Source of the DNA: Armatimonadota bacterium
GTDB lineage: Bacteria > Armatimonadota > Zipacnadia > Zipacnadales > Zipacnadaceae
DNA length: 64,000 nt
Direction of reading: 5' to 3'
NCBI GenBank assembly: GCA_036504235.1
Contig: DASXVN010000076.1
Location: forward strand, 4,395 to 68,394
The first letter of the stretch is position 1. Each line of letters begins with the position of its first letter. Made by a program: the position numbers and the translations under genes. The notes under the pieces were generated by a model. It was not told the origin of the DNA. It ran no database searches and saw only the letters and a list, made by a program, of their open reading frames with translations. Shown piece by piece: positions 16,957 to 53,596 of this stretch.

Positions 16957-18177
16957 CTAGAATAGACTCTCCTGCGGATTCCCCCCGGCCACACGGACCG
17001 CGAGGCTGCCGTCGCTCACCGCGACGGTCAGCGCCTCGCCCGGCGGCGCCGCGGCGACCTTCGTCACCAGCGCCCCGTCGCGCGTCCTCTGCACTAACGC
17101 ATATCCCCGGCCCAGTACCTCACGCGGGTCCATGGCGGTGAGGCCCGCGGCCAGCCGCTGCAACTGGTGCCCGGAGCGCTCCAGGCGCAGGCGCAGGCTG
17201 TCCGCGCCCCGCTCGGCCGCCACGTCCACCCGCTGCAGCCAGGGCGCGAGCAGCGACTCCGGCCGGGCCAGCACCGGATTCTGCTCCAGCCGCGCCAGGC
17301 GCAGATGCTGTCGCCGGGCCAGGCTCTGCAGGCCCGTCCGCGACCGCTGCCCCAGGGCCCGCAGGTGGTTCTGCAGTTGTATCTGGTCGGGCACGACCAG
17401 CTCCGCCGCCGCCGAGGGCGTGGGCGCGCGCAGGTCCGCCACCAGGTCGCAAATCGTGATATCCGTCTCGTGGCCGACGGCGCTGACCACCGGCAGCGGG
17501 CAGGCGAACACCGCCCGCGCCACGACCTCCTCGTTGAAGGCCCACAGGTCCTCCAGCGACCCGCCGCCGCGGCCGACGATGACCACGTCGGCCTCCCCGC
17601 GCCGGCCCACTTGCTGCAGGGAATTGACGATGCTCGCCGGAGCGGCGTCCCCCTGCACCAGGGTCGGCACCAGGACCACGCGCGCCAGCGGATAGCGCCG
17701 GCTGAGGATGTTGATCATGTCGCGGATCGCCGCGCCGGTGGGCGAGGTACACAGGGCGATCACGCGGGGGAAGCGCGGCAGGGGCCGCTTGCGCTCGGCG
17801 GCAAAAAGCCCCTCGGCGAGCAGGCGAGCCTTGAGCGCCTCAAAGCGCTGGTGGAGTTCCCCCAGGCCGTCCGGCCGCATGTGCACGACCATGAGCTGGT
17901 ATTTGCCCTGGGGTTCGTAGAGCGACAGCGAGCCGTAGGCGACGACCTGCTGGCCCTCCTGGGGGTCGAAGTTCAGGCTGGAGGCCTGCCCGCGGAAGCA
18001 GACCGCGCCCAGCAGGCTCTTATCGTCCTTGAGGGAGAAATACAGGTGGCCGGAGGAATGACGCCGGAAGTTGGAGATCTCGCCGCGCACCTGAACCTGC
18101 TGCAGCAGCGGGTCCGCCTCGATCAGGCGCTTGAGGTAGACGGTAAGCTCGGAGACACTCCAGACCCCGTCCGCCAC
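16957..18177 (-). CDS. xseA: Exodeoxyribonuclease VII large subunit
   Basis: OB-fold N-terminus (VWSVSELTVYLKRLIE...GEISNF...SGHLYFSLKD) and catalytic core (...IVGRGGGSLEDLWAFNEE...). GTG start at 18177, 1 nt after the nusB stop; TTG at 18195 is an alternative. Confidence 0.85.
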   Translation of the reverse strand: MADGVWSVSELTVYLKRLIEADPLLQQVQVRGEISNFRRHSSGHLYFSLKDDKSLLGAVCFRGQASSLNFDPQEGQQVVAYGSLSLYEPQGKYQLMVVHMRPDGLGELHQRFEALKARLLAEGLFAAERKRPLPRFPRVIALCTSPTGAAIRDMINILSRRYPLARVVLVPTLVQGDAAPASIVNSLQQVGRRGEADVVIVGRGGGSLEDLWAFNEEVVARAVFACPLPVVSAVGHETDITICDLVADLRAPTPSAAAELVVPDQIQLQNHLRALGQRSRTGLQSLARRQHLRLARLEQNPVLARPESLLAPWLQRVDVAAERGADSLRLRLERSGHQLQRLAAGLTAMDPREVLGRGYALVQRTRDGALVTKVAAAPPGEALTVAVSDGSLAVRVAGGNPQESLF

Positions 18178-18178
18178 G

Positions 18179-18739
18179 CTAATCCGCCTCCGCAAGCGGC
18201 TCGGGGGGCGATTCTTCTTCGGGGGTCGGCGCCTCGTCGGCGGCGGCCGGGGGGGTCTGCAGCTCCCGGGCTACGGTGCCCAGGATGCCGTTGATGAACT
18301 TGCCGCTGTCGGCGGTGCCGTATTCCTTGGCCAGGTCCACGGCCTCGTCAATGGTCGCGCCTACCGGGATGTCGGCGAGGTACAGCAGCTCGGCCATCGC
18401 CATGCGCAGGATGTTGCGGTCCACCACCGGCATGCGCTCGAGCGTCCAGCCCTGGGAGAGCCGGTCAATGCGCTCGTCGATGTCCCGGTGGTGGATGAAG
18501 TATTCCTCGCAGAGCCGGCGGCCGAAATCGCTCACGGCGGGCCGCAGCTTCTGGGCCTCGTCGGGGGCCAGACCCCACTCGGTGAACAGCGAGGTGAGCA
18601 TGTCGTCGGCCTGCATGAACACGGCGGCCGGCCCGTCCAGACCGCTGTCCGAGGCATAGAGCAGGGCCACGCAGAACTCGCGAGCCCGCCGTCGGGCTCC
18701 GGCTCTTTCCCGCTTGCTGAAGGGTGATTCAGATCGCAT
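18179..18739 (-). CDS. nusB: Transcription antitermination factor NusB
   Basis: NusB fold motifs (...REFCVALLYA...WTLERMPVVDRNILRMAMAELLY...IDEAVDLAKEYGT...GFINGILG...), with an acidic C-terminal tail. Confidence 0.85.
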   Translation of the reverse strand: MRSESPFSKRERAGARRRAREFCVALLYASDSGLDGPAAVFMQADDMLTSLFTEWGLAPDEAQKLRPAVSDFGRRLCEEYFIHHRDIDERIDRLSQGWTLERMPVVDRNILRMAMAELLYLADIPVGATIDEAVDLAKEYGTADSGKFINGILGTVARELQTPPAAADEAPTPEEESPPEPLAEAD

Positions 18740-20400: not shown

Positions 20401-20631
20401 CTACTTGAGATTGGCGATGAACTCCTCAACGGACAGGCCGGCCTGCTCCAGAATGCGGTGCAGGGTGCCCAGGGCCAGATCGTGGCCGCCATGCTCCGGA
20501 ACTACCGTGGAACGCTTCTGCTCATGGTGGACCATGAAGGTGTGGCTGCCCGTGATCCGCATTTCCTCGAACCCGGCCCGGCGGAGCGCCGCGATGGTCT
20601 CTCGCGCGTTGACCCGGGGCTCCTTAGGCAC
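20401..20631 (-). CDS. hicA: HicA-family mRNA interferase toxin
   Basis: 76 aa with ...LRRAGFEEMRITGSHTFMVHHEQKRSTVVPEHGGHDLALGTLHRILEQAGL, matching the HicA/YcfA-like fold motif (GSH...). Confidence 0.7.
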   Translation of the reverse strand: MPKEPRVNARETIAALRRAGFEEMRITGSHTFMVHHEQKRSTVVPEHGGHDLALGTLHRILEQAGLSVEEFIANLK

Positions 20632-20977
20632 CGGGCTGGTCCTCCCGGATGGTAAGCCGATAGACGAAGGCCTCCTGGCTATGGCTCATGTCCACGGTGA
20701 CCTGTGGATTGTCGGGCGCCAGCGGCCAGCCCAACTCGCGGTTGCCCTGAAGATAGAGCCGCAGGGCGTCCTCCGTCATCTGTAGGCACTCGGGCAGGGT
20801 ATCGCCAAAGCTGCCGCAATTGTTCAGCGCCGGCGCGTAGGCTGAGTAGTGTCCATCAGCTTCCCGCATCACGACAACAGTGTAGACTGTCTCCGCCTGC
20901 TTCCGGCCACGACCGCGTTTCGCCCGAGGATCAGGACAAGCGGCCGGCGGAGTGCCCGGTTTTGCCTTGGTGGGCAT
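20624..20977 (-). CDS. hicB: HicB-family antitoxin
   Basis: ...YTVVVMREADGHYSAYAPALNNCGSFGDTLPECLQMTEDALRLYL is a HicB N-terminal (UPF0150-like) domain. Overlaps hicA by 8 nt. Confidence 0.65.
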   Translation of the reverse strand: MPTKAKPGTPPAACPDPRAKRGRGRKQAETVYTVVVMREADGHYSAYAPALNNCGSFGDTLPECLQMTEDALRLYLQGNRELGWPLAPDNPQVTVDMSHSQEAFVYRLTIREDQPGA

Positions 20978-21003: not shown

Positions 21004-21396
21004 TCAGTACTTCTCATGCCCCGGCGTGGGGTCGGATACGGCGCCGGTCGCGGGATCATACTTGAACGCCTGCCCGCTGACCGCGCACTTGAGCGGCACC
21101 CCCCATTTGGGGTCCAGCGCCGCCGGCCACTCGCCGGTTGAGTCCTTCTCCATCTGCAGCGCCATGCGCAGTTGGTGGAGATTATTGATGCAGTCCACGG
21201 TCTGGCCCTTTTGCAGGCTCTGGCCCAGCACCGTCTGCGCCTCGCCCGCGAAGCGCGGCTTACGCTGCACGTTCCCGGCGGGACGCAGGTAGAGCCACCA
21301 GACGGCGATCATGATGATCGCCACCACGACGAGCAGGCCAATCAGGGTGGCGCTGCCTCGGCGCGAGCACCGACCTCGCTGCCTCACGATGGTCAC
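21004..21396 (-). CDS. Small N-terminally anchored membrane protein
   Basis: TM helix TLIGLLVVVAIIMIAVWWLY. GTG start overlaps the accB TGA stop (GTGA). Confidence 0.4.
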   Translation of the reverse strand: MTIVRQRGRCSRRGSATLIGLLVVVAIIMIAVWWLYLRPAGNVQRKPRFAGEAQTVLGQSLQKGQTVDCINNLHQLRMALQMEKDSTGEWPAALDPKWGVPLKCAVSGQAFKYDPATGAVSDPTPGHEKY

Positions 21397-21845
21397 GCTC
21401 CCGGCCGGAGCACAAACAGCAGGTCGCCAAACTGCACCGGCTGGTGCTCTTCGGCCACGATCTCCGCCACCGTCCCCGCTCCCGGCGCGGTGACGGCCGT
21501 AATCTGCCGCAAAGACTCAATAGTGCCGATAGTCTGCCCCGCCTTGACCTGGTCCCCGAGCGCAACCAGCGGCTCGCTGTCCGGACCATTGCCCCGGTGG
21601 AAGAACCCCACCAGCCGCGCGGTGACCGCCACGGCGCCCTCCGCCACCTCCGGCGTCGCGATGGCCATGCCCAGCGAGATCGCCGGGAGGCCGTTCGCCT
21701 CCGTCTCCTCGCGCACCGGCGCAGCCGCCACCGGCAGAGCCGGTCGGCGCAGGCGCACGTACAGATCGCCTTCCTTGACGGACAACTCCAGCGCGGAGGA
21801 TTCCTTCAGTATACCCAGCAGGCTCAGGATACGTTCGCGATCCAC
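21393..21845 (-). CDS. accB: Biotin carboxyl carrier protein ortholog (AccB) lacking the biotinyl-lysine
   Basis: N-terminus (MDRERILSLLGILKESSALELSVKEGDLYVRL) parallels E. coli [32 protein letters not shown], followed by an Ala/Pro linker and biotinyl domain. The EAMKM motif reads ESLRQ; the codon is CGG (Arg), read from the minus strand. Confidence 0.8.
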   Translation of the reverse strand: MDRERILSLLGILKESSALELSVKEGDLYVRLRRPALPVAAAPVREETEANGLPAISLGMAIATPEVAEGAVAVTARLVGFFHRGNGPDSEPLVALGDQVKAGQTIGTIESLRQITAVTAPGAGTVAEIVAEEHQPVQFGDLLFVLRPGA

Positions 21846-21890: not shown

Positions 21891-22455
21891 CTACTTCGCG
21901 CGGGTGACGTACTCGCCGGTGAGGGTGTTTACGGTAATGACCTCTTCGTTCTCGATGAACAGCGGCACGGTTACCTTGATCCCGCCCTCAATCGTAGCCG
22001 GCTTGTTGCCCCCCTGAGCGGTGTCGCCCTTGAGGCCCGGCTCGGTGTAGATAACCTTGCGGTCCACCGTATTGGGCAGCTCCAGACCGATGATCCGGTC
22101 CTCGTAGACGGTGACGTAGAGGTCCTCGCCTTCCTTGAGCCAGCCCAGATCAGCGCCGATCTGCTCGCGGGTGAGTTCGCGCTCCTCGTAGGTCTCGTTA
22201 TCGAGGAAGTGATAAAGCTCGCCGTCGGTCCACATGTAGTTGTGCGGCCGCTTCTCCAGCCGCGCGGTCTCCAGGCGGTCTTCCGGATCGAAAGTCTTGT
22301 CAAAGGACTCGCCGTTAATGATGTCGCGCAGCTTGGTGCGAATGAGAGCGGACCCGCGTCCGACACCCATGTGATGGTCCGCATGCAGGACGCGCAAGAT
22401 GCGCCCGTCCATATCAATCGTGTTGCCTTCCCGAAGTTTCGTCGCCAGAATCAAG
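21891..22455 (-). CDS. efp: Elongation factor P
   Basis: 188 aa from a TTG start at 22455 preceded by GGAGG. ...ILATKLREGNTIDMDGRILRV... aligns with the EF-P N-terminus; C-terminal ...TEPGLKGDTAQGGNKPATIEGG..VTVPLFI is EF-P. Confidence 0.85.
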
Positions 22456-24643: not shown

Positions 24644-25843
24644 CTACTTGCCGGCGAGCATTGCCTGCGCCATTTGCGCCCCCAGCGCGCGAGCGGCCTG
24701 CAGGTCCTCGTCCGTCGGCACCAGGCGCGCCGTCGCCGGCTCGCCCACCACGTTCATCTTCAGGTCGGCCAGCCGCGAGGCGATGAAGCGCGGGGCCTCG
24801 CCGCTCCAGCCGAAGGAGCCAAAGCTGGCGGCGAGCTTGCCGCGCAGATTGAGCGTGGCCAGCGAGGAGAGCAGGTCCCAGACCGGCTTGACCGCGTCGC
24901 CGTTGATGGTCAGCGAGCCGACCGCCACGCCGCCGCAGGTCTCCAGGTCGTCGGTCACCGCGCTCAGGTCGGCGCTGGACAGGTCCAGCAGCGACACCCG
25001 CGCCCCGGCCTCCTCCGCGCCCCGGCCCAGTTCCTCAGCCAGCCGCCGCGTGTTGCCGTAGGAGCTGGCATAGAACACCAGCAGCCGGTCCGGCTGCGAG
25101 CCGGGCAGAACCTGCGCCCACGAACGGTATTTCGCCAGTAGCTCGGGTATCCCCTGTCGCAGGATCGGCCCGTGGCTGGGGCAGACGATCTTGACCTCGC
25201 GCCGGTCTATCTCCTCCAGGCCCTTGAGCACGTAGCTCTTGAAGGGGCGAAAGATCACGTTGAAGTAGTACTCGAACTGGTAGGCGTACTCCTCGGTGAG
25301 GTCGTTAAAGAGCCGCTCGTCGGCGAAATGCGCCCCCAGGAAGTCACAGGGGAAGAGAATCCGGTCCTCCTGCAGGTACGTGAACATGGTGTCCGGCCAG
25401 TGCAGGAAGGGGGCCTGGATGAACTCCAGGGTCTTGCCGCCCAGCTCCAGGGTGTCGCCGCTGCCGACCAGCCGCGGGTTCACGTCGCGATGCAGCAGCC
25501 CGCCCACCAGCAGCTTGGCGCTCTTGGAGCACAGCACCTGCGGCCCGCCGCACTTGTCCAGCACTGCGGCCAGCGCGCCGGTGTGGTCCGGCTCGCAGTG
25601 GTTGAGCACCAGGTAATCCACCGCCCAGGTGTCCACCAGCTCTTCCAGATGCTGATAAAGCTGCGGCTCAAAACCCGCCTTGACCGTCTCGATCAGCGCG
25701 GTCTTCTCGCTGCCGCGCACCAGATAGGCGTTGTAGGTGGTGCCGTGCGGCGCGGCCATGATGACGTCAAAAACGCGAATATCCGGGTCCAGCGCTCCGA
25801 CCCAGTGAACCCCGTCAGCGATCTGTACAGACAACTTCCTCAC
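24644..25843 (-). CDS. Flavodiiron protein (A-type flavoprotein: metallo-beta-lactamase + flavodoxin domains)
   Basis: ...VDYLVLNHCEPDHTGAL... diiron MBL site and C-terminal flavodoxin-like domain (LVFYASSYGNTRRLAEEL). Exact start uncertain: GTG at 25843 or TTG 3 codons in. Confidence 0.8.
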   Translation of the reverse strand: MRKLSVQIADGVHWVGALDPDIRVFDVIMAAPHGTTYNAYLVRGSEKTALIETVKAGFEPQLYQHLEELVDTWAVDYLVLNHCEPDHTGALAAVLDKCGGPQVLCSKSAKLLVGGLLHRDVNPRLVGSGDTLELGGKTLEFIQAPFLHWPDTMFTYLQEDRILFPCDFLGAHFADERLFNDLTEEYAYQFEYYFNVIFRPFKSYVLKGLEEIDRREVKIVCPSHGPILRQGIPELLAKYRSWAQVLPGSQPDRLLVFYASSYGNTRRLAEELGRGAEEAGARVSLLDLSSADLSAVTDDLETCGGVAVGSLTINGDAVKPVWDLLSSLATLNLRGKLAASFGSFGWSGEAPRFIASRLADLKMNVVGEPATARLVPTDEDLQAARALGAQMAQAMLAGK

Positions 25844-37791: not shown

Positions 37792-38574
37792 CTACTCGGG
37801 CCAGTCTCCGCCTTGCGCCGCGGTACCCCAGCGCTCACAGGCACCGACGCCATTGCTGCCCGCCGGGTTCAGCGCAAACGGCCCCTGGCCGTCATGGTAC
37901 CACTTGGCGTTGCCATCCACGAACAGGAAGTTCTTCCCGCCCACGTGGAACATGATCTCTGAGTACCCCGGCTGCCCCTTCGTGCTGTGGCTCTGGTACA
38001 CGTTCTCCCCCAGCGCGTCGCCCCACGAGCCGGGCAGATTCGCGCCCTTTTCGAAGAGCAGCACCGTCGCGGCCGGATCGGGGATCATGGCCTTGTTGCC
38101 CCCGGTGAAGATAGTCGTGACGCCGACCCGCCGCGAGCGCTGCGTGTACCGAGCGATCGCGTAGGCGCGCAACGTGTCCGCCTTGGCTCCGGGGGTCCCG
38201 ATGACGGCCTCCGGCATCGGATTAGTGGGGCAGGTCATGATTCCGCTGACCTTCTTCTCCACGTAGTCGCCAATAGTTATGTCCCAGGTGATGATCCCGG
38301 CCGCCGGCTGGTCCTTCGGGGTCGGGGGCGCCATGGGGTTGGGATGGCTGACGCACCACGTGGGGAAGTACTGATAGCTGTCGTTGCAGTACAGCGAGAA
38401 GGCCATCCCCAAGTTTTTCAGGTGCGAGATGCACTCGACGCGACGCGCGTTATTCCGCGCGTTCGCGATCACCGGGAACAGAATCGCCGACAAGACGGCG
38501 ATGATCGCAATCACCACCAGCATTTCCACCAGCGTAAAACCCGTCCGCAGACGGCGGGCTTGGTTCATCTCCAC
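37792..38574 (-). CDS. Prepilin-type N-terminal cleavage/methylation domain protein with DUF1559-like C-terminus
   Basis: Leader + GFTLVEMLVVIAIIAVLSAILFPV (type IV pilin N-methylation site). C-terminal ...GGKNFLFVDGNAKW... is typical of DUF1559 proteins, which are abundant in Planctomycetota and Armatimonadota. Confidence 0.75.
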   Translation of the reverse strand: MEMNQARRLRTGFTLVEMLVVIAIIAVLSAILFPVIANARNNARRVECISHLKNLGMAFSLYCNDSYQYFPTWCVSHPNPMAPPTPKDQPAAGIITWDITIGDYVEKKVSGIMTCPTNPMPEAVIGTPGAKADTLRAYAIARYTQRSRRVGVTTIFTGGNKAMIPDPAATVLLFEKGANLPGSWGDALGENVYQSHSTKGQPGYSEIMFHVGGKNFLFVDGNAKWYHDGQGPFALNPAGSNGVGACERWGTAAQGGDWPE

Positions 38575-40802: not shown

Positions 40803-43800
40803 CTAGGCCGTATCCTCGGACTGGGGCGGGCCGCTCTCGCCCTCCACCAGCCGCCCTTCCAGCAGGGCCACGGCGTTCTGTCCGTACTCGTCCTTCTGCG
40901 CGGCCGGGAAGGTGCGCCACAGCAGATACTGCTTGCGGATGATGTTCACGAAGTTGCGGGTGACCCGCATCCAGGACGCGTCGTCACCGCTGGCGCGAAT
41001 GATCCGCGCCTCGATGGTGAAGATTTCCGGGTCCTCGGTGGGCACGGTCTCCACGTACAGCCGCTCGGAAACGCCCAGGTCGTACGGCGCCAGCCAGACC
41101 ATCGAGCCCAGCCGGTAGCCGGGTCCGTTCGGGAAATCCTCCTGGCTCATGACGATCTCCGCCGTCGAGAATTGCCCCAGCGAGTAGTCCGTGTGCGCCA
41201 GGAGGAACTCGCGCAGGTACATGTTCACGCCCAGCGCCTGGTCGCCGGTAACCGTGAAGGGCAGGCTCATGTTCAGGTTGTCGCCGTCCGGCTCCGGCAG
41301 CGACCAGCGCCGCTCGATACCGGGCATCGCGATGTCCGAGGCCCGCCGCGCCGGGTAGACCACCGAGAGCAGCACGGTGGCCATAATGATCAAGGTCGTC
41401 GCTACCGCCGAGAGCGAGGAGTAGTTCAGGTTCAGGCTCGCGCTCAGGTGGAACATCGTCACGATCTTGGCCGCAGTCTGGCCGACCAGGTAGCCGGCGA
41501 TGGCCCCCAGCACGGCGTAGACGCTGGCCTCGGCGATGAATAGCGCCGCGACGTGGTTGGGCGCGAGACCCAGCGAGCTGTAGATGTAGATCTCCTTGAC
41601 GCGCTCGTAGACCGACCCCAGCATCGTGTTGAGTACGATGGCGGCCGCGATCAGAATGGGAATGATCAAGTCGCCCATCCCGGCCAGGCTGGTGGAGCTT
41701 ACCGCGCTGCACAGGTAAGTCTTGCCGCCCACGCCCGCGTACAGGTTCAGCTCAATGCGGGTGATCAACTTGTTCAGCACCTCGTCGGCGCTCTTGTCGT
41801 CCGGCGTCGCAATGGCTACCGAGCGCAGCGTCGCGTTATGGTCCATGGCGAACTGGTAGGGAACCAGCACGATGCTGTCCGGCCCCAGATGAATGTACTC
41901 CTGGGCGTCACCGCCCTTGCCGGCGCTGCCTCGCGACTCCTCGAGCTGCTGCTGCGCCATCTGCTGCTGCATGACCAAAAAGTCGACCGGCGTCATGACT
42001 TCGCTGTCCATGTCCTGGGCGCTCTTGAAGCGCGACGAGGAGAGCACTCCGATCACGCGCATCTGGTTGCCGAAGACGCTGACGGTCGCGGTCCCGATAT
42101 CCGACGGCGCCACAGACAGGGCCTTGGCGACGCCCTCCGGCAGGATGCAGACCCGTTCGTCATTGGGCTGGAACCAGCGGCTGCCCGGGATCAGATACTG
42201 TTGCGGCTTGGTGACCTCGGCCTCCGTCGGCGTCATCCCCAGCATCGCCGTGGCCATGTACTGCGCGGGCCCGCGGCTAATGCTGACGAAGGACTGCTTG
42301 CCGATCTCGGTCGAGAAGTACCAGGCGCGACCGGCCACCTTATACTCGTCGCTAAATTCGGTGACCATCTGCCGGTAGGCGACCTCACCCATCGGCAGCC
42401 AGGTCTTGTCCCGCATCAGCACGCCGTTATACGGCGCCAGCTTGGGGATCAGGATCTTGTTGGCCCGGACGCTGGACACCACGGAGGTGAAGGACATAAC
42501 CGTGAAGGTCAGCAAAATCAGCGTCAGGCAGGTCAGGATCGTCCGGGTCTTGCGCCGGCGCATGTTGGAAACGCCCAGGCTGAAGGCCGCGGCCGAGGCG
42601 CTCATGCGGCCTACGTCGGCCTCATGAACCCCGGTCTGTTCATACTTGACCGCCTTCATTTGCTCCTCGAATTTGCTGACGATAATGCTAGTCACCAGCA
42701 CGCCGAGGGCTAGAATGATGAAGGCCAGCAGAATTACAATGGAGGTACTAGTCAGCGCAAAAGCAGGATGCACGTAGTACAGCACCGCGAAGATGCCCAG
42801 GAAGATGCCGCCCGTGCCCAGCAGTTGCCACTTGAGGTCCGGGTGGCCGATCAGCAGCCGCTCCAGGAAGTAGCTGAACGGCAGGAGCAGCGCCATGTAG
42901 AAGATGATGCCCTTGATGACGTCGTTGGCCGTGGACCGCACGGCCGGGTAGGCCCGCGATTCCAGTGACCACGCCGCCCGCGAGGACGAGATGAACTGGT
43001 CATAGCGCCACTGCTTGAGGAACTCGGAGGCCTTCTCCAGTTCCGCTTTGGCCGCCCCGTGCGCCTCGTCTACCAGGTTGTTGGTGATCCCGTACTGCTT
43101 CAGCTTCTGGATGCGGCTCTCGTCGAGCGTCCACATGTCCCGCGCCACCAGGTACGGGCTCATGTACAGCGCCGGGGTCTCATCCGCCAGGTAGCCGTCC
43201 CCGTTGGGGTTGGCCGCGGTGCTGTTGAGCAGCAGGAAGCGCAGCCCCAGCAGGCTGGCGGCCATGGTCACGCGCAGCTTGGTGCCGGCGGTCGAAAAGA
43301 CCATCCCCACCGGCTCGTAGTTGCTCTGCAGCTTCTTCGGCGGCAGCGGCAGGCAGTAGCCGTAGGTGTACGGCTCGGCCTCCAGGCCCGCGTCATATAC
43401 ATAGATCTGCGAGAGCAGATCGTAGAACCGCTGGTCCACCATGTCGTACAGCGTAGTCGCCTTCGCCTCGAACATCACGACTGTGGCCGGCTTCACCGGC
43501 TGGTCCATTTCCATCTCGATCGGGTAGGCGATCGCGCCGTTGACGCCCTGGTCCGGGGCCATCACGATGCCGCCGTCCTGCGGGCTCAGCAGGAAGCCGT
43601 CCACTTTGGTCTTGCCCGCCACCGCGCGTACGTTGGCGACGCCGGCGAGGTCAAAGCGGCCCTTCTCGTCCGCCGAATCCAGCAACTCGGTCCGCACGCC
43701 CATGGCGCTCTTCTCAACCTTGCGGATGGCCGCGATGCCGCCCACGATCGGGTCGTCCGGGAAGGTGCTGACCGCCGGGTCAAACTGCACAAGCCGGCCC

Positions 43801-45764
43801 TTGGCCTCCACGAAGTTGTCCTCCAGCTCAATCTTGAACAGGTCCTGCGGCTGAGTGACGGAGACCATATCGCCGAGCAAGCAGCCCATGAACCGGGCCT
43901 GCTCCACGACGTTGTCGATGTTCATCGCAGCGGGCAGGTCCATCGGCGTATCCACCAGGGGCCGCCCGTCGTTGATGGTGGCCAGGCCCACGGCGGGCAC
44001 CCCGGCCAGCACGCAGATCTCGCTGCCCAGGGCCAGATGCCCGGACATGTACGCCTGCCAGTTCTTGCCCTGCAGGGCGTTGATGCCGTCGGCGAAGCGC
44101 TGCGCCGGATCGACCGACAGCGCCTGCCCGACCAGCGCGGCGTACTCCCGGGCCTTCTTGCCCAGGTCCGCGAACTTCCACTGCATGCCCTCGTTATAGT
44201 CGTAGAAATAGCCCTTGAAGAACATGCCGAAGGCCGGATTGTGGCTGGACAGGTCCACCGAGAACCACAGGTTGACGTCCTCGCTGGTGAAGTCCAGGGC
44301 GCCGGTCAGCGCGTAGACCTTGGCCTCGACGTCCTTGAGCGCCGCCTGCTTCGCGGCGTCGTCGCCCGCCGTCTGGCCCTGAGCGGCCTTGACGGTGGCC
44401 TCGGCTTGGTCGGCGGCCTGGCGAATCAGGGGCGCGCGCTTCTGGAACTCGTCCAGATACGCTTTGCGCTTGGCCACGTCCGCCGCGGGAAGCTGATACA
44501 CCGACAGCACGCCCGCGTTGGGGTCGTGCGCCAGGCCCGAGCCGGACTTACTCTCCAGCCGGTCGGCCTTGCTCCGTGCGTCATTGATGCGGCCTAGCAG
44601 GCCGCTGACGCCTCGGAGCTGATCGTCAATGGTGCGGGTCTCAGTGGCCCCCGGCGGGAGCGCGCCCCACAGCCGGTCGGCGATGTCTTCGAGGCCCTTG
44701 CGTGACTCGTTGGCGATATTGAAGCAATACTTGACATACCCGTCGGCCCGCGCGCCGCGCGTGCGCTGCATCAGGTAGCGCTTCTCGCCGGCCAGCGCCT
44801 CAAAATGCCCGGAGGTGGCCAGGAAGACGACGGTGCGCTTAGGCGGCTGCGCCTGGAAGGTCTTGACCAGTTGCAGCAGCGTCGCGATCGAGGTGGCCGA
44901 CTCCGCCCCCGGCGCGAGGCTAGGGACGATGGACATGGAGTCGTAGTAGGCCTGGATGACGATGCGCTGAGTCTTGAGGCGCGGATCGGTGCCGGGGATC
45001 ACGCCGGAGATGTTCTTGGCCGTGACCTTCTGCCACTTCATGTCGCAGTTGACGGTCACATTGACCTGCGGCTGGCTGCGCAGCGTGCCCAGCAGATAGT
45101 CGGCCACTGCCCGGGGCACCCAGTAGCGGGGAATGTCCGCCGGGATGGACAGGAACTTCTGCTCGGCCTCGCCGCGAATCGTCCCCTCCGGCTCAATGAA
45201 CAGCACGGCGCGGGCGCCCAGCATTGGCGCGTTGAGCCACTCCGACTGACAGTTGAAGTCCATCAGCACGATGCTGCCGGTCACGGGATGTCCGTTGAAG
45301 GCCGCCAGGCTGCCGTCGCCGCCATACAGCAGCGGACCGGTGAGGCCCTCGGGCGGCGTCTGCGGGGTGCGGACCAGATTGGGCCACAGCGGGTAGACGG
45401 TGAACTGCTTGCCGGCCACGCTCAGGGAGGCGGGCTGCTCATCGTTGCCCGGCCGGGGCGACAGGACCGGGAACTCGTCCACGGCCACGTCCTGCAGGCC
45501 GGCCGCGCGGAACTTGGCTTCCACGAGTTGGGCGGTCTTCTCGCAGCCCGGATAGCCGGTCACCCGGCTGCCGAAAGCGGCCAGTTCCTGGATGGTCTGG
45601 GTAATTTCCGGAGCAGAGATCTGCGCGGCGACCTTCGCGTAGTCCGTCTCGGAGGAGAGCGCCACCTCCATTTCCTCCTGGGCCATAGTGGTGAGGTCAG
45701 TCACCATCAGACCCAGCAGGACAACTACCGCGAATAGGGCCGGCTTCATCATGCGTGATTTCAT
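40803..45764 (-). CDS. Giant ABC-transporter permease: signal peptide + degenerate M28/transferrin-receptor-like (PA) ectodomain + coiled-coil region + two FtsX/MacB-type permease modules
   Basis: 1653 aa. N-terminus has a PA-like region (GSIVLMDFN...GARAVLFIEP) and an M28-like region with non-canonical residues (YYDS, GAESATS, SGHFEALAG). C-terminal half has two FtsX-like 4-TM modules, the second with a MacB-like periplasmic domain. Confidence 0.7.
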   Translation of the reverse strand: MKSRMMKPALFAVVVLLGLMVTDLTTMAQEEMEVALSSETDYAKVAAQISAPEITQTIQELAAFGSRVTGYPGCEKTAQLVEAKFRAAGLQDVAVDEFPVLSPRPGNDEQPASLSVAGKQFTVYPLWPNLVRTPQTPPEGLTGPLLYGGDGSLAAFNGHPVTGSIVLMDFNCQSEWLNAPMLGARAVLFIEPEGTIRGEAEQKFLSIPADIPRYWVPRAVADYLLGTLRSQPQVNVTVNCDMKWQKVTAKNISGVIPGTDPRLKTQRIVIQAYYDSMSIVPSLAPGAESATSIATLLQLVKTFQAQPPKRTVVFLATSGHFEALAGEKRYLMQRTRGARADGYVKYCFNIANESRKGLEDIADRLWGALPPGATETRTIDDQLRGVSGLLGRINDARSKADRLESKSGSGLAHDPNAGVLSVYQLPAADVAKRKAYLDEFQKRAPLIRQAADQAEATVKAAQGQTAGDDAAKQAALKDVEAKVYALTGALDFTSEDVNLWFSVDLSSHNPAFGMFFKGYFYDYNEGMQWKFADLGKKAREYAALVGQALSVDPAQRFADGINALQGKNWQAYMSGHLALGSEICVLAGVPAVGLATINDGRPLVDTPMDLPAAMNIDNVVEQARFMGCLLGDMVSVTQPQDLFKIELEDNFVEAKGRLVQFDPAVSTFPDDPIVGGIAAIRKVEKSAMGVRTELLDSADEKGRFDLAGVANVRAVAGKTKVDGFLLSPQDGGIVMAPDQGVNGAIAYPIEMEMDQPVKPATVVMFEAKATTLYDMVDQRFYDLLSQIYVYDAGLEAEPYTYGYCLPLPPKKLQSNYEPVGMVFSTAGTKLRVTMAASLLGLRFLLLNSTAANPNGDGYLADETPALYMSPYLVARDMWTLDESRIQKLKQYGITNNLVDEAHGAAKAELEKASEFLKQWRYDQFISSSRAAWSLESRAYPAVRSTANDVIKGIIFYMALLLPFSYFLERLLIGHPDLKWQLLGTGGIFLGIFAVLYYVHPAFALTSTSIVILLAFIILALGVLVTSIIVSKFEEQMKAVKYEQTGVHEADVGRMSASAAAFSLGVSNMRRRKTRTILTCLTLILLTFTVMSFTSVVSSVRANKILIPKLAPYNGVLMRDKTWLPMGEVAYRQMVTEFSDEYKVAGRAWYFSTEIGKQSFVSISRGPAQYMATAMLGMTPTEAEVTKPQQYLIPGSRWFQPNDERVCILPEGVAKALSVAPSDIGTATVSVFGNQMRVIGVLSSSRFKSAQDMDSEVMTPVDFLVMQQQMAQQQLEESRGSAGKGGDAQEYIHLGPDSIVLVPYQFAMDHNATLRSVAIATPDDKSADEVLNKLITRIELNLYAGVGGKTYLCSAVSSTSLAGMGDLIIPILIAAAIVLNTMLGSVYERVKEIYIYSSLGLAPNHVAALFIAEASVYAVLGAIAGYLVGQTAAKIVTMFHLSASLNLNYSSLSAVATTLIIMATVLLSVVYPARRASDIAMPGIERRWSLPEPDGDNLNMSLPFTVTGDQALGVNMYLREFLLAHTDYSLGQFSTAEIVMSQEDFPNGPGYRLGSMVWLAPYDLGVSERLYVETVPTEDPEIFTIEARIIRASGDDASWMRVTRNFVNIIRKQYLLWRTFPAAQKDEYGQNAVALLEGRLVEGESGPPQSEDTA

Positions 45765-45896: not shown

Positions 45897-46793
45897 CTAA
45901 TGCTCCTGGCCGCCCATGATACCAACGGCAAGTTCGATATCCTCGCGCCGTTCGATTCGCTCGATGGCCCCGTCGCGGATGTGCACGACGCGGTCGGAAA
46001 CGTCAATCATCTTCAGATCGTGGGTAGCGGAGATAATCGTAACGCCGCTCTCAACGTTCAGCTCCTTGAGCAGGTCAATGATCTCCTTACCGGTCAGCAG
46101 GTCCAGGTTGCCGGTCGGCTCGTCGGCGAGGATGATCGCCGGGCTGTTGGCCAGCGACCGCGCCACGGCCACGCGCTGCTGCTGTCCGCCCGATAGCTCA
46201 TTGGGCTTGTGGTGCAGGCGGCCGCCGAGGCCTACCAGTTCCAGCAGCATCCGCCCGCGCTCCAGCATCTCATCGCTGCTCGCGCCGGCGAAGATCATCG
46301 GCAGGGTGACGTTCTCCAGCGCCGTCATTACCGGGATCAGATTGAAGGTCTGGAAAATGTAGCCGATGGTGCGGCAGCGCTGCCAGGCCAACTCCTGCGC
46401 GCTAAGCTGCGCCATGTCCGTCTCGTTGATGTAGCACGAGCCGGAGGTCGGCTTGTCCAGGCCGCCCACCAGGTTGAACAGGGTGGACTTGCCGGAGCCG
46501 GAGGGGCCCATGATGGACAGATACTCCCCACGGCGGATGTCCAGGTCCACGCCTTTGAGCGCCGGGACCTCCACATCCCCCATCTTGTAGATTCGCGTCA
46601 GGCCGCGGGTCCGCACGATATACTCGTGAGTGGTCACCGAGTCATCGCGCACCAGGTCAGCGGCGCGCTTGCGCAGGTTGCGCGAGGCCGCCTCCAGCAC
46701 CCCGGTCATATCCGCGTGACACTCCGGGCAGACCGTGACCAGCCCCGTCGTCTCGACTTCGTGACCACATTCCGCACACACGTATTTGGCCAT
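45897..46793 (-). CDS. MacB/LolD-type ABC transporter ATP-binding protein with N-terminal zinc-ribbon
   Basis: CAECGHEVETTGLVTVCPEC zinc ribbon; Walker A GPSGSGKST; LSGGQQQRVAVARSL signature; Walker B ILADEPTGNLD. ATG at 46793 with AAGGAG RBS. Confidence 0.85.
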   Translation of the reverse strand: MAKYVCAECGHEVETTGLVTVCPECHADMTGVLEAASRNLRKRAADLVRDDSVTTHEYIVRTRGLTRIYKMGDVEVPALKGVDLDIRRGEYLSIMGPSGSGKSTLFNLVGGLDKPTSGSCYINETDMAQLSAQELAWQRCRTIGYIFQTFNLIPVMTALENVTLPMIFAGASSDEMLERGRMLLELVGLGGRLHHKPNELSGGQQQRVAVARSLANSPAIILADEPTGNLDLLTGKEIIDLLKELNVESGVTIISATHDLKMIDVSDRVVHIRDGAIERIERREDIELAVGIMGGQEH

Positions 46794-46852
46794 TGCCTTC
46801 GCTCCTTGTTGGTCCCGCCCTGCCCGCACGAGCCGGGCAACTCCGGCCGACC

Positions 46853-47611
46853 CTAGATCTCCGACCGCAGAGCGGCCGCCGGCGGCATCTGCGCCGCCCG
46901 TATCGCGGGCGGAATCGCCGCCATCAGACTCAGGACGGCGCCGATCACCACGGACGCCACCATGTAGCCCGAAAGCTGCGCCCAGTTGACCTGGCCGACC
47001 ACGCCGAAACCGTACTTTATCCCGTAAAACAGAATCACAAACAGCGAGCCGACAATCAGGCCCGCCACGGACCCCAGCACGCCGACCACGGCGGCCTCAA
47101 TCAAAAAGAGCCGCACAATGAATGAATCGAGGGCTCCTAAACACTTCATCGTCCCAATTTCCTGGAACCGCTCCGTGACCGACATCAGCATGGAGTTGGT
47201 GATCCCGATGCCGCAAACCAGCAGCGACATGATGACCAGCCAGAGCTGGCGCGCGGCCTTTTCCTTGGCCGTTGCGGCCAACTGCTCGGCGGTCTGCTTT
47301 TGGCTAGCCTCGGTAGTCGCGGAGCCGGCGGTGCCGCGCACCGTCTCGGCGGCTTGCGCCACCGACTGCTCCTGCTGGACGCGAGCCTTCTCGACTCCCT
47401 CGCTAAAGATGTGGTCCGACCACACGTAGCTCAGGAAGGCCACGCCGAGGATGATGCCGGTGGCGGTGATGCCGGCCCGCCCCAGTCGCAGCAACACGCT
47501 CTTGGTGCTGATGCGGAAAGCGTCGCTCCAGGGCAGCATGATCTGCCGCTGCACGACCAGCGATTTCTCGCCGCCGCCGCCGCCCAATTCCGCCAGTTTC
47601 TTCACGTCCAT
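46853..47611 (-). CDS. FtsX-like ABC transporter permease (single 4-TM module)
   Basis: One TM, a short periplasmic segment, then three C-terminal TM helices with FtsX-family topology. Sits upstream of the ATPase in the same operon. Confidence 0.7.
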   Translation of the reverse strand: MDVKKLAELGGGGGEKSLVVQRQIMLPWSDAFRISTKSVLLRLGRAGITATGIILGVAFLSYVWSDHIFSEGVEKARVQQEQSVAQAAETVRGTAGSATTEASQKQTAEQLAATAKEKAARQLWLVIMSLLVCGIGITNSMLMSVTERFQEIGTMKCLGALDSFIVRLFLIEAAVVGVLGSVAGLIVGSLFVILFYGIKYGFGVVGQVNWAQLSGYMVASVVIGAVLSLMAAIPPAIRAAQMPPAAALRSEI

Positions 47612-49155: not shown

Positions 49156-50994
49156 TTAGAAGCCTACGGAGACGCCCATCATCACGAGCTGAGCATCCTC
49201 GAGTACGCTACCAGCAAGGTCCTTCGTGCGGTCCTCAACCAGCTGCTGGGCATAGGTGAAGTTAACATCTACGCCGTTGGCAACGGGCTTCTTCACGCGG
49301 ATGGCCCACAACTTGTCGAACGGAGCGCGAGTCTCGTTACCAGCGGCGAAGACCCGATCCCCTACGTTGTTGACGCCCCACATGGTGTTAGCCCAGTTGT
49401 CGCTCCGGCCATGCAACGAATAGTACATTGCATTCCAGTCGGCAGCGACGAACTTGAAGTTGAGCTGTCCGCCGATGACCTGCGTGTTCGGCATGACGAG
49501 CGGGTTGCGGAGCCAGCGCTCCCACGGAACCCACGTCGTGCCGTCTTCGTTCCCGTAGTTCTCGAAGTACGGGTTGACGGTGGAGTAGAAGGGGTTGTAC
49601 TCGGCGTCAGCCTGCGAGTAGTAACCCTTGAGGGCCCAAGCGCGGCCCTTCCAGATATCGACCGTGGCCATCAGGGCCTCCGGGTCGTTGTGGGTGACAT
49701 ACTTGTCGCCCGCGAGGTCGCGAAGCTGCTGAGCGTATTCTGCCTGCAGCTCGCGGCCGCCCCAGAAACGTACCCAACCGTCGGCGCTCCAGCCGCGCTC
49801 CCCGCCCACACCGTTGAGCAGGTAGTTGCCCGCGACAGCCCAGTTCGGCTGCTTGTAGGACAAGCGGGTGCTGGCATAGTAGTCGCCCATGGTCTTCCAC
49901 GGGGTGCTGAACGTGTAGTCGGCGCCGCCCACGAAGGCATCCAGGCCGATTCCGGTCGAGAACATGTTGTTCCAACCGAAGCGGATCCCCTGCTGCGACT
50001 GCCGGGCGTTGTTGACGAGCAGGCCCATGCCATAGGACTGGAACTGGCGGCCCAGCACCATGTGGGTGCGGGGGAAGACATGCCAGGTGAAGTCCAGGTT
50101 GGCCTCATCAAGCCACAGCTGCTCGGCCTGATGGGTGATGGAGCTGCTGGTGCCGAGGTCGGTGAAGCCGTCCAGGGCCACGATGTTGCGCCCGGCGAAG
50201 CTGCCGCGGCGGGTGAACGTCGAGACGAACGGGGCTTCGGTGTCGCGGACCTTGAGCACTACGCGACCGGTCAGGTCGTCAGTGATCTTGCCCTCGATGC
50301 CGAGCTTGGCGGTCATGTTGTCGAACTCGTTCTGCCCGACCTTGAAGCCCTTGGCCGAGCTGAGCAGGCTCTGCTGGCCGCCCACCAGGCGGCTCCCGGT
50401 GAACTGCTGGGCCAGGCCTACGCGATAGTCTACCCAACCGGTGACGCGGGGGCCCTGGCGGGCCTCGAGGGCGGCAACGCGGTCGGTGAGGCTATACACG
50501 TCGTCGGTCAGGTAGTCGAGGTTGTCCTTGACGTCCTTCAGCTCATTCTTGAACTCGTCGCAGAGCTTCTGGCAGACAGCCTTGACTTCGTCGGGATTGA
50601 CGACACCAGCCGGACCCTGCGGGCCAGTGGCGCCCGCGGGACCCTGCGCGCCAGCCGGGCCGGCGGCGCCGGCGGGACCAGCAGTACCAGTGACGCCAGC
50701 GGCGCCAGCGGGGCCCTGCGCGCCAGCGGGGCCGCGCATGTTCGGGTTCTTCTGCAGGGCGTCCAGCATGCGGCTAATGGCCATAGCGAACTCGTAGCGA
50801 GTCATGGCCCGGTTGCCACGGAACGTACCATCGGGGTACCCGATGATAATGCCCTGGTCGACGAGCTTCTGTACGGCATCATAGGCCCAGTGATCAAACG
50901 GCACAGTTTCGGCCGGATTGTACTGAGCCAGCGCGGGCAGGGCGATAGCGCCCAGCGCCACGATCAGGCATACGACTAGGAATTTCTTGCTCAT
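49156..50994 (-). CDS. Outer-membrane protein: SLH domain + collagen-like G-P-A repeats + coiled coil + C-terminal beta-barrel (porin-like)
   Basis: Signal peptide [23 protein letters not shown]; SLH motif ([38 protein letters not shown]); [43 protein letters not shown]; C-terminus ends in F. ATG at 50994 with AAGGAGGG RBS. Confidence 0.7.
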
Positions 50995-51448
50995 TTGGGT
51001 TATTAACCCTCCTTTTGGATGGTCGTCGAGGAGACGCGAGGTTGGCTCACAACTCGGCTTGCCCAAGCGTCCCTCCGGAGCGAACAGACCAGCATTGGAG
51101 GGCTCAAGAGTGTCCATGTTTCCTCTCATGCCCTGGCTGCGAACGGTCTGCGCTACTCCGCCCTCGTCCATTGACCTCTGATACCCTGGCCTGGAGGTCC
51201 CTCCCTTCTTGGGCCTGGTGTTTGGATATCAGCATGGACAAGCGCTCGACATACGGGGCATAAGCCCCGCTTACGGCGGGTTAACGATACTATTTTAGCC
51301 GCCGCAAGTCAAGGTAGTTCGACACCTGAGCTTCCGAAAGGTTCGCCTTCTCCAGCCTTTTCTCCGGGAATTTCCCCGGCCCCTTGAGGACCGTGCTTCC
51401 TCCCTAGCGACCCCCGCACTAGCAGCAGTTTCCAAACTGTCGCTGCTG

Positions 51449-53020: not shown

Positions 53021-53596
53021 CTAGTACGCCTCGCAATACGGCTCGTAGTACGCCTGCGCATGCTGACACGCCGGACACACCTTGGGCGGCGTGGCGCCCT
53101 CCATCACCATGCCGCAGTTGCGGCAGTGCCACTTGATCGGCGCGGGGCGCGAGAAGACCTCGCCCGCCGCCACGCGACCGGCCAGTACGTTATAGCGATG
53201 CTCGTGGAAGGCCTCTACCTTAGCGATCTGGTCGAAGGACACGAACACCGCGCCGAAGCCCTCCTCCTTGGCGGTCGCGGCGAAGCCGGGATACAGCGTG
53301 CCCCACTCCAGCAGCTCGCCCGCGGCCGCGGCCTGCAGGTTCTCCAGAGTCCCGGCGATCACGCCGCCCGGGTAGGTAGCGGTGATCTCCACGTCGCCGC
53401 CCTCGAGGTGCTTGAAGAAGACCTGCGCGTGCTCCTTCTCATTGTCCGCGGTCTCGGCAAAGATCGCGGAGATCTGCTCATACCCCTCCTTCCGCGCCAC
53501 GCTGGAGAAGTAGGTGTAGCGGTTGCGGGCCTGCGACTCGCCGGCAAAGGCGGCCAGCAGGTTCTTCTCGGTCTGTGAGCCTTTCAGACTGGACAT
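53021..53596 (-). CDS. rbr: Rubrerythrin
   Basis: Ferritin-like diiron motifs (E..H pairs) plus a C-terminal rubredoxin-like CxxC...CxxC (CRNCG...CPAC). Confidence 0.85.
   Translation of the reverse strand: MSSLKGSQTEKNLLAAFAGESQARNRYTYFSSVARKEGYEQISAIFAETADNEKEHAQVFFKHLEGGDVEITATYPGGVIAGTLENLQAAAAGELLEWGTLYPGFAATAKEEGFGAVFVSFDQIAKVEAFHEHRYNVLAGRVAAGEVFSRPAPIKWHCRNCGMVMEGATPPKVCPACQHAQAYYEPYCEAY

Follow-up and report, generated by a model that had tools for sequence, protein, structure and literature searches.

A BCCP homolog without the biotin-accepting lysine occupies the accB position beside an intact accC in a lineage of Armatimonadota

A single residue, the biotinyl-lysine, defines a biotin carboxyl carrier protein (BCCP). 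Homologs that do without this lysine are best described from plants, in which the BADC proteins lack the AMK(L/M) motif, are not biotinylated, and bind both biotin carboxylase (BC) and BCCP (PMC12706156, PMC11926652). The BADCs have been portrayed both as inhibitors and as the "glue" of assembly (PMC12706156, PMC11926652). The literature regards them as peculiar to plants, and one report terms them "unique to the plant htACCase" (PMC11926652). Our full-text searches, with most subscription journals outside their coverage, returned plant work only and no description of a lysine-less bacterial BCCP.

Two other groups of proteins invite comparison. Fused BC-BCCP acetyl/acyl-CoA carboxylases occur in Chloroflexota, e.g. 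in Chloroflexus, and such alpha subunits (Chloroflexus BC1, actinobacterial AccA) illustrate that in Terrabacteria a different polypeptide can provide the carrier (PMC11077971). These subunits keep EAMKM and are biotinylated, whereas the AccC described here is an unfused protein of 451 residues. RnfC_N (PF13375), NqrA_N and the barrel-sandwich hybrid domains of HlyD/RND adaptors share the fold of the biotinyl domain without a cofactor lysine. They are devoid of the BCCP N-terminal domain, the linker, the thumb and any linkage to accC; their likeness to the protein described here is one of fold only.

In this report, we examined a 64-kb stretch of DNA (hereafter "the window") from an Armatimonadota bacterium. 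It encodes a 150-residue BCCP homolog, referred to below as the AccB-like protein, in which arginine stands where biotin would be attached. The features of the locus are collected in Table 1.

Table 1. Features of the accB-like locus in the window and of gene X in related loci
Feature	Coordinates	Strand	Remarks
efp	21891..22454	-	187 aa in the Logan gene call; mechanical ORF to 22520 = 209 aa
accB-like gene (150-aa BCCP homolog without biotinyl-lysine)	21393..21845	-	stop codon 21393-21395
N-terminal domain, residues 1-35	21741..21845	-	helix 3-15 and beta hairpin 20-33; homologous to the E. coli BCCP N-terminal region
Ala/Pro-rich disordered linker, residues 36-71	21633..21740	-	pLDDT <50 for residues 38-63
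biotinyl-type barrel-sandwich domain, residues 72-150	21396..21632	-	thumb at full length
Arg113 codon (CGG), biotinyl-lysine position at hairpin tip	21507..21509	-	motif E110-S111-L112-R113-Q114
gene X, 130 aa, pseudopilin-like, between the accB-like gene and accC	21004..21396	-	hydrophobic N-terminal helix, two conserved Cys
gene X in locus L002	10446-10829
gene X in locus L003	2712-3077
gene X in locus L011	8519-8956
gene X in locus L013	10434-10856
hicB, antitoxin-like	20624..20977	-	between X and accC
hicA, toxin-like	20401..20631	-	8-nt overlap with hicB
accC, biotin carboxylase, 451 aa	18997..20352	-	intact, unfused; TIGR00514 639.9 bits vs cutoff 626.5
nusB	18179..18739	-	next conserved member of the order
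xseA	16957..18195	-	next conserved member after nusB

A preliminary description of this DNA had proposed that the acceptor lysine of AccB is replaced by arginine, and the comparison with E. coli bears this out. In a phmmer alignment, the E. coli residues V-E-A-M-K122-M fall without gaps on I-E-S-L-R113-Q, and the CGG codon is two substitutions away from AAG. An AlphaFold model places R113 in the turn that links strands 105-111 and 114-119. K101, which had been raised as a possible canonical lysine, aligns to E. coli N110, lies outside the hairpin, and varies among relatives (K, E, R, A, Q, H and others). Biotinyl and lipoyl domains reportedly go unmodified once their lysine is moved by a single position (Reche and Perham; Wallis and Perham). 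The accompanying claim that the last 50 residues contain no lysine is right for the last 49 and wrong for the fiftieth, K101 itself being the 50th residue from the C-terminus. With the acceptor gone and no conserved alternative lysine in the sequence, BirA-type biotinylation at the hairpin is excluded, as had been proposed. Judged by its sequence, then, the protein cannot carry biotin at this site.

The substitution is shared by relatives. Lysine is absent from the site column in all 47 homologs gathered by sequence search, which read ESLRQ, EALRN or EALGK. In the last of these, a lysine is displaced by one position from the acceptor column. Within the ESLRQ group, E110, S111, L112, R113 and Q114 are invariant, and the locus-finding search picked ESLRQ[IMV]TAV as the best conserved segment.

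Beyond the hairpin tip, the protein retains the three modules of a BCCP: an N-terminal domain, a flexible linker and a thumb-bearing biotinyl fold. Residues 1-146 align by phmmer to full-length E. coli BCCP (4hr7_B, E = 2e-15), with zero gaps in the biotinyl domain (residues 74-146). The Pfam model Biotin_lipoyl (PF00364) scores 43.3 bits, above its gathering threshold of 22.1. The AlphaFold model, built from 47 homologs, has a pLDDT of about 88 for residues 1-35 and about 97 for residues 72-150, with a disordered linker between them. Its top Foldseek match in the PDB is the biotinyl domain of E. coli (1BDO; rmsd of 1.1 Å over 75 columns, 32% identity). Conserved positions in the N-terminal domain are R3, L13, S16, E20, L21, R33 and R34. 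The thumb proline is kept and conserved as P88, and the thumb tyrosine is replaced by histidine (H83). Taken with the confirmed neighbors efp and accC, these results sustain the earlier reading of the ORF as a BCCP homolog in the accB position, with an Ala/Pro linker and a C-terminal biotinyl domain.

Differences from the E. coli type (TIGR00531; 1BDO, 4HR7) are nonetheless clear. Not only has the hairpin lysine become arginine, but the methionine before it has become leucine (ESLRQ versus EAMKM), and the BCCP equivalog model TIGR00531 scores 69.7 bits, far under its cutoff of 115.2. The protein therefore lacks two of the defining marks of a BCCP, namely the lysine and a score above the curated cutoff, and displays two others, namely the architecture and the linkage to accC. 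We also observed that it exceeds the gathering score of RnfC_N (30.4 versus 25.6 bits) and that most relatives in the ESLRQ group carry a precomputed RnfC_N match.

The gene opens with GTG, seven bases 3' of an AGGAG sequence, and its GC3 of 0.84 is the same as that of the neighboring genes. It belongs to a long row on the minus strand: efp, the accB-like gene, gene X, hicB, hicA, accC, nusB, xseA, an unknown gene, dxs, a histidine kinase, a TPR protein, NAD kinase and a RecN-like gene. The start of efp is probably at 22454, because matches to the family models begin only at residue 25 or 26 of the 209-residue ORF and the Logan call has 187 residues. From efp to accC, the gaps measure 0-48 nt and our scan found no terminator-like sites; the same scan placed one promoter-like site upstream of efp, which in a non-model phylum is weak evidence. 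The accB-like gene thus lies in a tightly packed, same-strand row with accC. The product of accC retains, on direct reading, the GGGGRG loop and the EMNTRIQVEHPVTE, HQK and ECR motifs, which we take to correspond to the catalytic residues of the E. coli enzyme. Its top match in the PDB is the small subunit of 2-oxoglutarate carboxylase, and its similarity to that protein equals its similarity to E. coli BC.

The slot between efp and accC is the one that accB occupies in the familiar order efp-accB-accC-nusB-xseA(-xseB)-dxs. Among Armatimonadota, the order efp, accB-like gene, X, accC, nusB, xseA recurs in all loci with a readable flank, i.e. on about nine distinct contigs in addition to the window (L002/L009, L003, L007, L008, L011, L015, L016, L017, L019 and L020). 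Scans with the ESLRQ group yielded three loci from genome contigs and six from metagenome contigs. In a sister lineage (locus L013, protein P0075 and relatives), X and the other genes follow in the same order, and the hairpin is the canonical G-T-I-E-A-M-K-V. That a lysine-bearing gene holds the same place in L013 marks the lysine-less gene as an ortholog of canonical accB; by gene order and alignment, it corresponds in position and descent to the housekeeping accB.

Gene X is a companion of this row. Its GTG start overlaps the stop of the accB-like gene (GTGA), with an alternative GTG 9 nt downstream. Its products comprise 121-145 residues and share 35-80% identity between loci. The N-terminal helix is of the prepilin type; signatures of N_methyl, GspG and ComGC are present in L003 and L011, whereas those in the window are degenerate. 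The C-terminal part carries a CP.SG..Y.YDP.TG motif. This pilin-like gene separates accB from accC at every Armatimonadota locus that we read, including the lineage that keeps the lysine. Its presence in L013 indicates that X predates the loss of the lysine. Elsewhere in the window, 37792-38574 (minus strand) encodes a DUF1559 prepilin-type protein, of a family that we take to be typical of Armatimonadota and Planctomycetota.

The window holds several other genes that merit mention. A protein of 1653 residues (40803-45764, minus strand) combines Peptidase_M28, MacB periplasmic core and FtsX permease domains, and it adjoins genes for an ABC ATPase at 45897-46829 and for another FtsX protein at 46853-47611. 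At 49156-51171 (minus strand) lies the gene for a protein with an SLH domain and collagen-like repeats.

Selection has acted on the accB-like gene about as strongly as on accC. By the Nei-Gojobori method applied to six loci, the C-terminal domain has a dN/dS of 0.14-0.25 and the N-terminal domain one of 0.14-0.32, compared with 0.11-0.26 for accC at the same loci. The linker evolves as if neutral, in an alignment that is unreliable there. These ratios are rough because dS is high (0.8-2), yet the domain-to-domain contrast and the match with accC come out clearly. The folded parts of the protein are thus maintained by purifying selection about as strong as that on accC.

The loss of the lysine extends well beyond the close relatives of the window gene. 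An exhaustive HMMER search of 1.84 billion representatives returned 19,149 matches at E<=0.001. Among the best 150 of these, about 50 have no lysine at the site and carry R, G, N, H, Q, D or S instead; the preceding residue in these sequences is mostly leucine rather than methionine. In a rough neighbor-joining tree, most lysine-less sequences form one large clade, with a few lysine-containing sequences near its base. A further lysine-less protein, P0070, sits inside the canonical groups of that rough tree, and therefore the lysine may have been lost more than once. The name "acetyl-CoA carboxylase biotin carboxyl carrier protein" is given to many of the lysine-less proteins by JGI and to at least one (P0042) by NCBI.

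Named members of the family come from Armatimonadota MAGs, from the "candidate division WS1" isolate AS10tlH2TH_13 and, within the ESLRQ group, from Candidatus Zipacnadum vermilionense. The last belongs to the class Zipacnadia, formerly UBA5377, and the paper on Zipacnadia mentions neither biotin nor carboxylases (PMC10290634). The window also encodes a flavodiiron-type protein (24644-25843, minus strand; ODP metallo-beta-lactamase fold plus flavodoxin) and a rubrerythrin (53021-53596, minus strand). Both fit an anaerobic or microaerophilic lifestyle, as has been proposed for Zipacnadia.

Another subtype, with the hairpin E[ST]LNV, includes a member from a Ktedonobacteraceae MAG (HYK86670.1). 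At two loci of this Ktedonobacteria type (L010 10001-11391, L012 4825-6235), the lysine-less gene follows efp (L012) or stands alone (L010), and accC is absent from both. The persistence of the gene without accC means that the family is not everywhere tied to that partner and can have a role independent of it, which counts against reading these proteins as carboxylase partners throughout. The proteins of this subtype have 175-189 residues with an N-terminal extension, and their genes are followed by a conserved gene for 273 residues. The 273-residue proteins are 74% identical between the two loci and have only a weak match, to DUF2398.

Some matches have unusual architectures. P0055, P0080 and P0124 begin with a TIR-like segment (e.g. 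"FISYRRDDS") and continue with two to four tandem biotinyl-type domains. One of the four such domains of P0055 has AMKM, and the combination of TIR-like and tandem biotinyl domains looks defense- or signaling-like. P0178 (281 residues; L014 6215-7060) joins a lysine-less BCCP-like half to a canonical BCCP half. We set it aside as direct evidence for a pairing of lysine-less and canonical forms, since it sits downstream of pxpB-pxpC-pxpA-type genes in an unrelated organism.

What, then, might an accB ortholog do without biotin? Our preferred reading, to which we would give slightly better than an even chance, is that this positional ortholog of accB lost its biotin-accepting lysine and has been kept by selection as a non-catalytic subunit. 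The operon linkage and the conserved N-terminal and hairpin surfaces suggest that the protein would still bind AccC. There, it could act as a scaffold or as a dosage-type regulator of the carboxylase complex, as plant BADCs do with BC and BCCP. A biotinyl domain from another part of the genome would carry the carboxyl group; this could be another BCCP or a carrier domain belonging to a PycB-, OadA- or CfiA-type or fused BC-BCCP subunit. The use of another carrier by acetyl-CoA carboxylase was one of the two options in the preliminary description, and it is probably the right one. There is precedent for such an arrangement, in that BC subunits of the AccC type work with carrier domains located on other subunits, as in 2-oxoglutarate carboxylase. 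The residues found at the former lysine site differ among subfamilies, which argues against a new chemistry there; the site and its flanks are strictly conserved within subfamilies, which speaks for a hairpin that still serves in docking. However, conservation at the hairpin tip exceeds what a passive scaffold would need, and this counts against the scaffold version of the proposal.

By analogy, the AccB-like protein would work most like a BADC. Both are BCCP homologs without the biotinylation motif, both are conserved by selection, and both are tied to BC. The BADCs, however, are extra paralogs beside true BCCPs, whereas the protein described here fills the ancestral accB slot. No second biotinyl domain accompanies it in the window or in the loci read, which counts against the core of the analogy, coexistence with a true carrier. 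Given the bacterial synteny and the lysine-containing ortholog of the sister lineage, the two most likely arose independently.

An alternative is that the AccB-like protein is the only AccB-type protein of these organisms and that the pair it forms with AccC is no longer a classical acetyl-CoA carboxylase (ACC). AccC could then serve another biotin enzyme, such as a two-subunit pyruvate or 2-oxoglutarate carboxylase, with the AccB-like protein in a new role; or malonyl-CoA could come from a fused BC-BCCP acyl-CoA carboxylase like those of Chloroflexota (PMC11077971). The orthology with the canonical accB of the sister lineage is in keeping with this idea, as it makes the lysine-less gene something other than an extra copy. 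So are the retention of the gene at the Ktedonobacteria-type loci that have lost accC and the equal similarity of AccC to the two kinds of BC subunit. Searches for another carrier point the same way. A custom HMM of the C-terminal domain, run on six-frame translations, found exactly one biotinyl domain per locus and no second one in the window or in 20 loci, and a search of the six frames of the window for AMKM or E[AST]MK yielded only unrelated chance matches. These searches took in the window and, for each relative, a surrounding stretch of at most 20 kb; they sampled under 2% of any genome, which limits their weight. Further, the tight linkage to accC and the matching strength of selection fit a continued partnership. 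The alternative overlaps with our preferred reading, and the two differ only in whether a stand-alone BCCP exists. We judge it credible but unlikely. An extension of the idea, which we offer tentatively and likewise consider improbable, is that Zipacnadia-type Armatimonadota are without any stand-alone biotinylatable BCCP. In such organisms, accB would encode an obligatory cofactor-free subunit, and BC would use a borrowed carrier domain or participate in non-textbook ACC chemistry.

Another possibility is that the protein is a decoy for, or a regulator of, BirA. Its hairpin would dock to the ligase without accepting biotin, and thereby tune biotinylation or BirA-dependent repression. The hairpin is the best conserved segment despite having no acceptor, and the thumb and the fold that ligases recognize are kept, both of which favor the idea. 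It is otherwise pure inference, and we found neither birA nor bio genes near the accB-like gene. Moreover, subfamilies differ in what they carry at the site (R, G, N, H, Q, D or S) and in its flanks, which is hard to fit to one conserved ligase pocket. We regard this explanation as quite improbable.

The preliminary description had favored a further explanation, that the locus has been functionally retired and that the hicBA insertion is a sign of its decay. The missing catalytic lysine and the low TIGR00531 score would suit a pseudogene. Yet neither a disrupted ORF nor relaxed selection was found: the reading frame is intact in all relatives (more than 47), the hairpin is its best conserved part, the folded domains are under the constraint described above, and accC is intact and scores above its equivalog cutoff. 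The hicBA pair does not serve as evidence of decay either. It was said to lie just downstream of the accB-like gene; it does lie downstream, but the conserved gene X intervenes. It breaks no ORF in the window. A hicB-hicA pair with 58-63% amino acid identity occupies the same slot between X and accC in two diverged relatives (L015 1063-1567, L019 876-1383), whose AccB-like proteins (54-60% identity) and X proteins (55-61%) have diverged to about the same degree. Persistence at one slot with matching divergence fits a long vertical residence in a sub-lineage and not a recent, disruptive insertion. Retirement of the locus is thus very improbable.

Finally, an error of sequencing or assembly at the CGG codon that would restore AAG, or K101 as the true acceptor, has little beyond the rarity of the change to commend it and hardly any chance of being correct, because the identical protein occurs in three assembly sources, which may derive from one sample (an NCBI TPA MAG, HEY3398594.1, "Armatimonadota bacterium"; the Logan assembly of SRR11794808, the one copy compared at the DNA level and identical there too; and a JGI contig of 113 kb), the arginine is invariant in the ESLRQ group, and K101 is unconserved and off the hairpin.

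An entire bacterial lineage thus keeps a lysine-less version of BCCP in the ancestral accB slot beside an intact accC, and the wider family reaches the Ktedonobacteraceae. One practical consequence concerns annotation: the BCCP labels that some pipelines attach to lysine-less proteins would mislead metabolic reconstruction of the MAGs that encode them. If the AccB-like protein works as a non-catalytic subunit, then control or assembly of ACC of the BADC type would have evolved independently in bacteria, and a simple operon would be at hand for its study. Should there be no other carrier, these organisms would organize malonyl-CoA synthesis in a way that is as yet unknown. And if there is no stand-alone BCCP at all, the first committed step of fatty-acid synthesis would have been rewired across a bacterial class.
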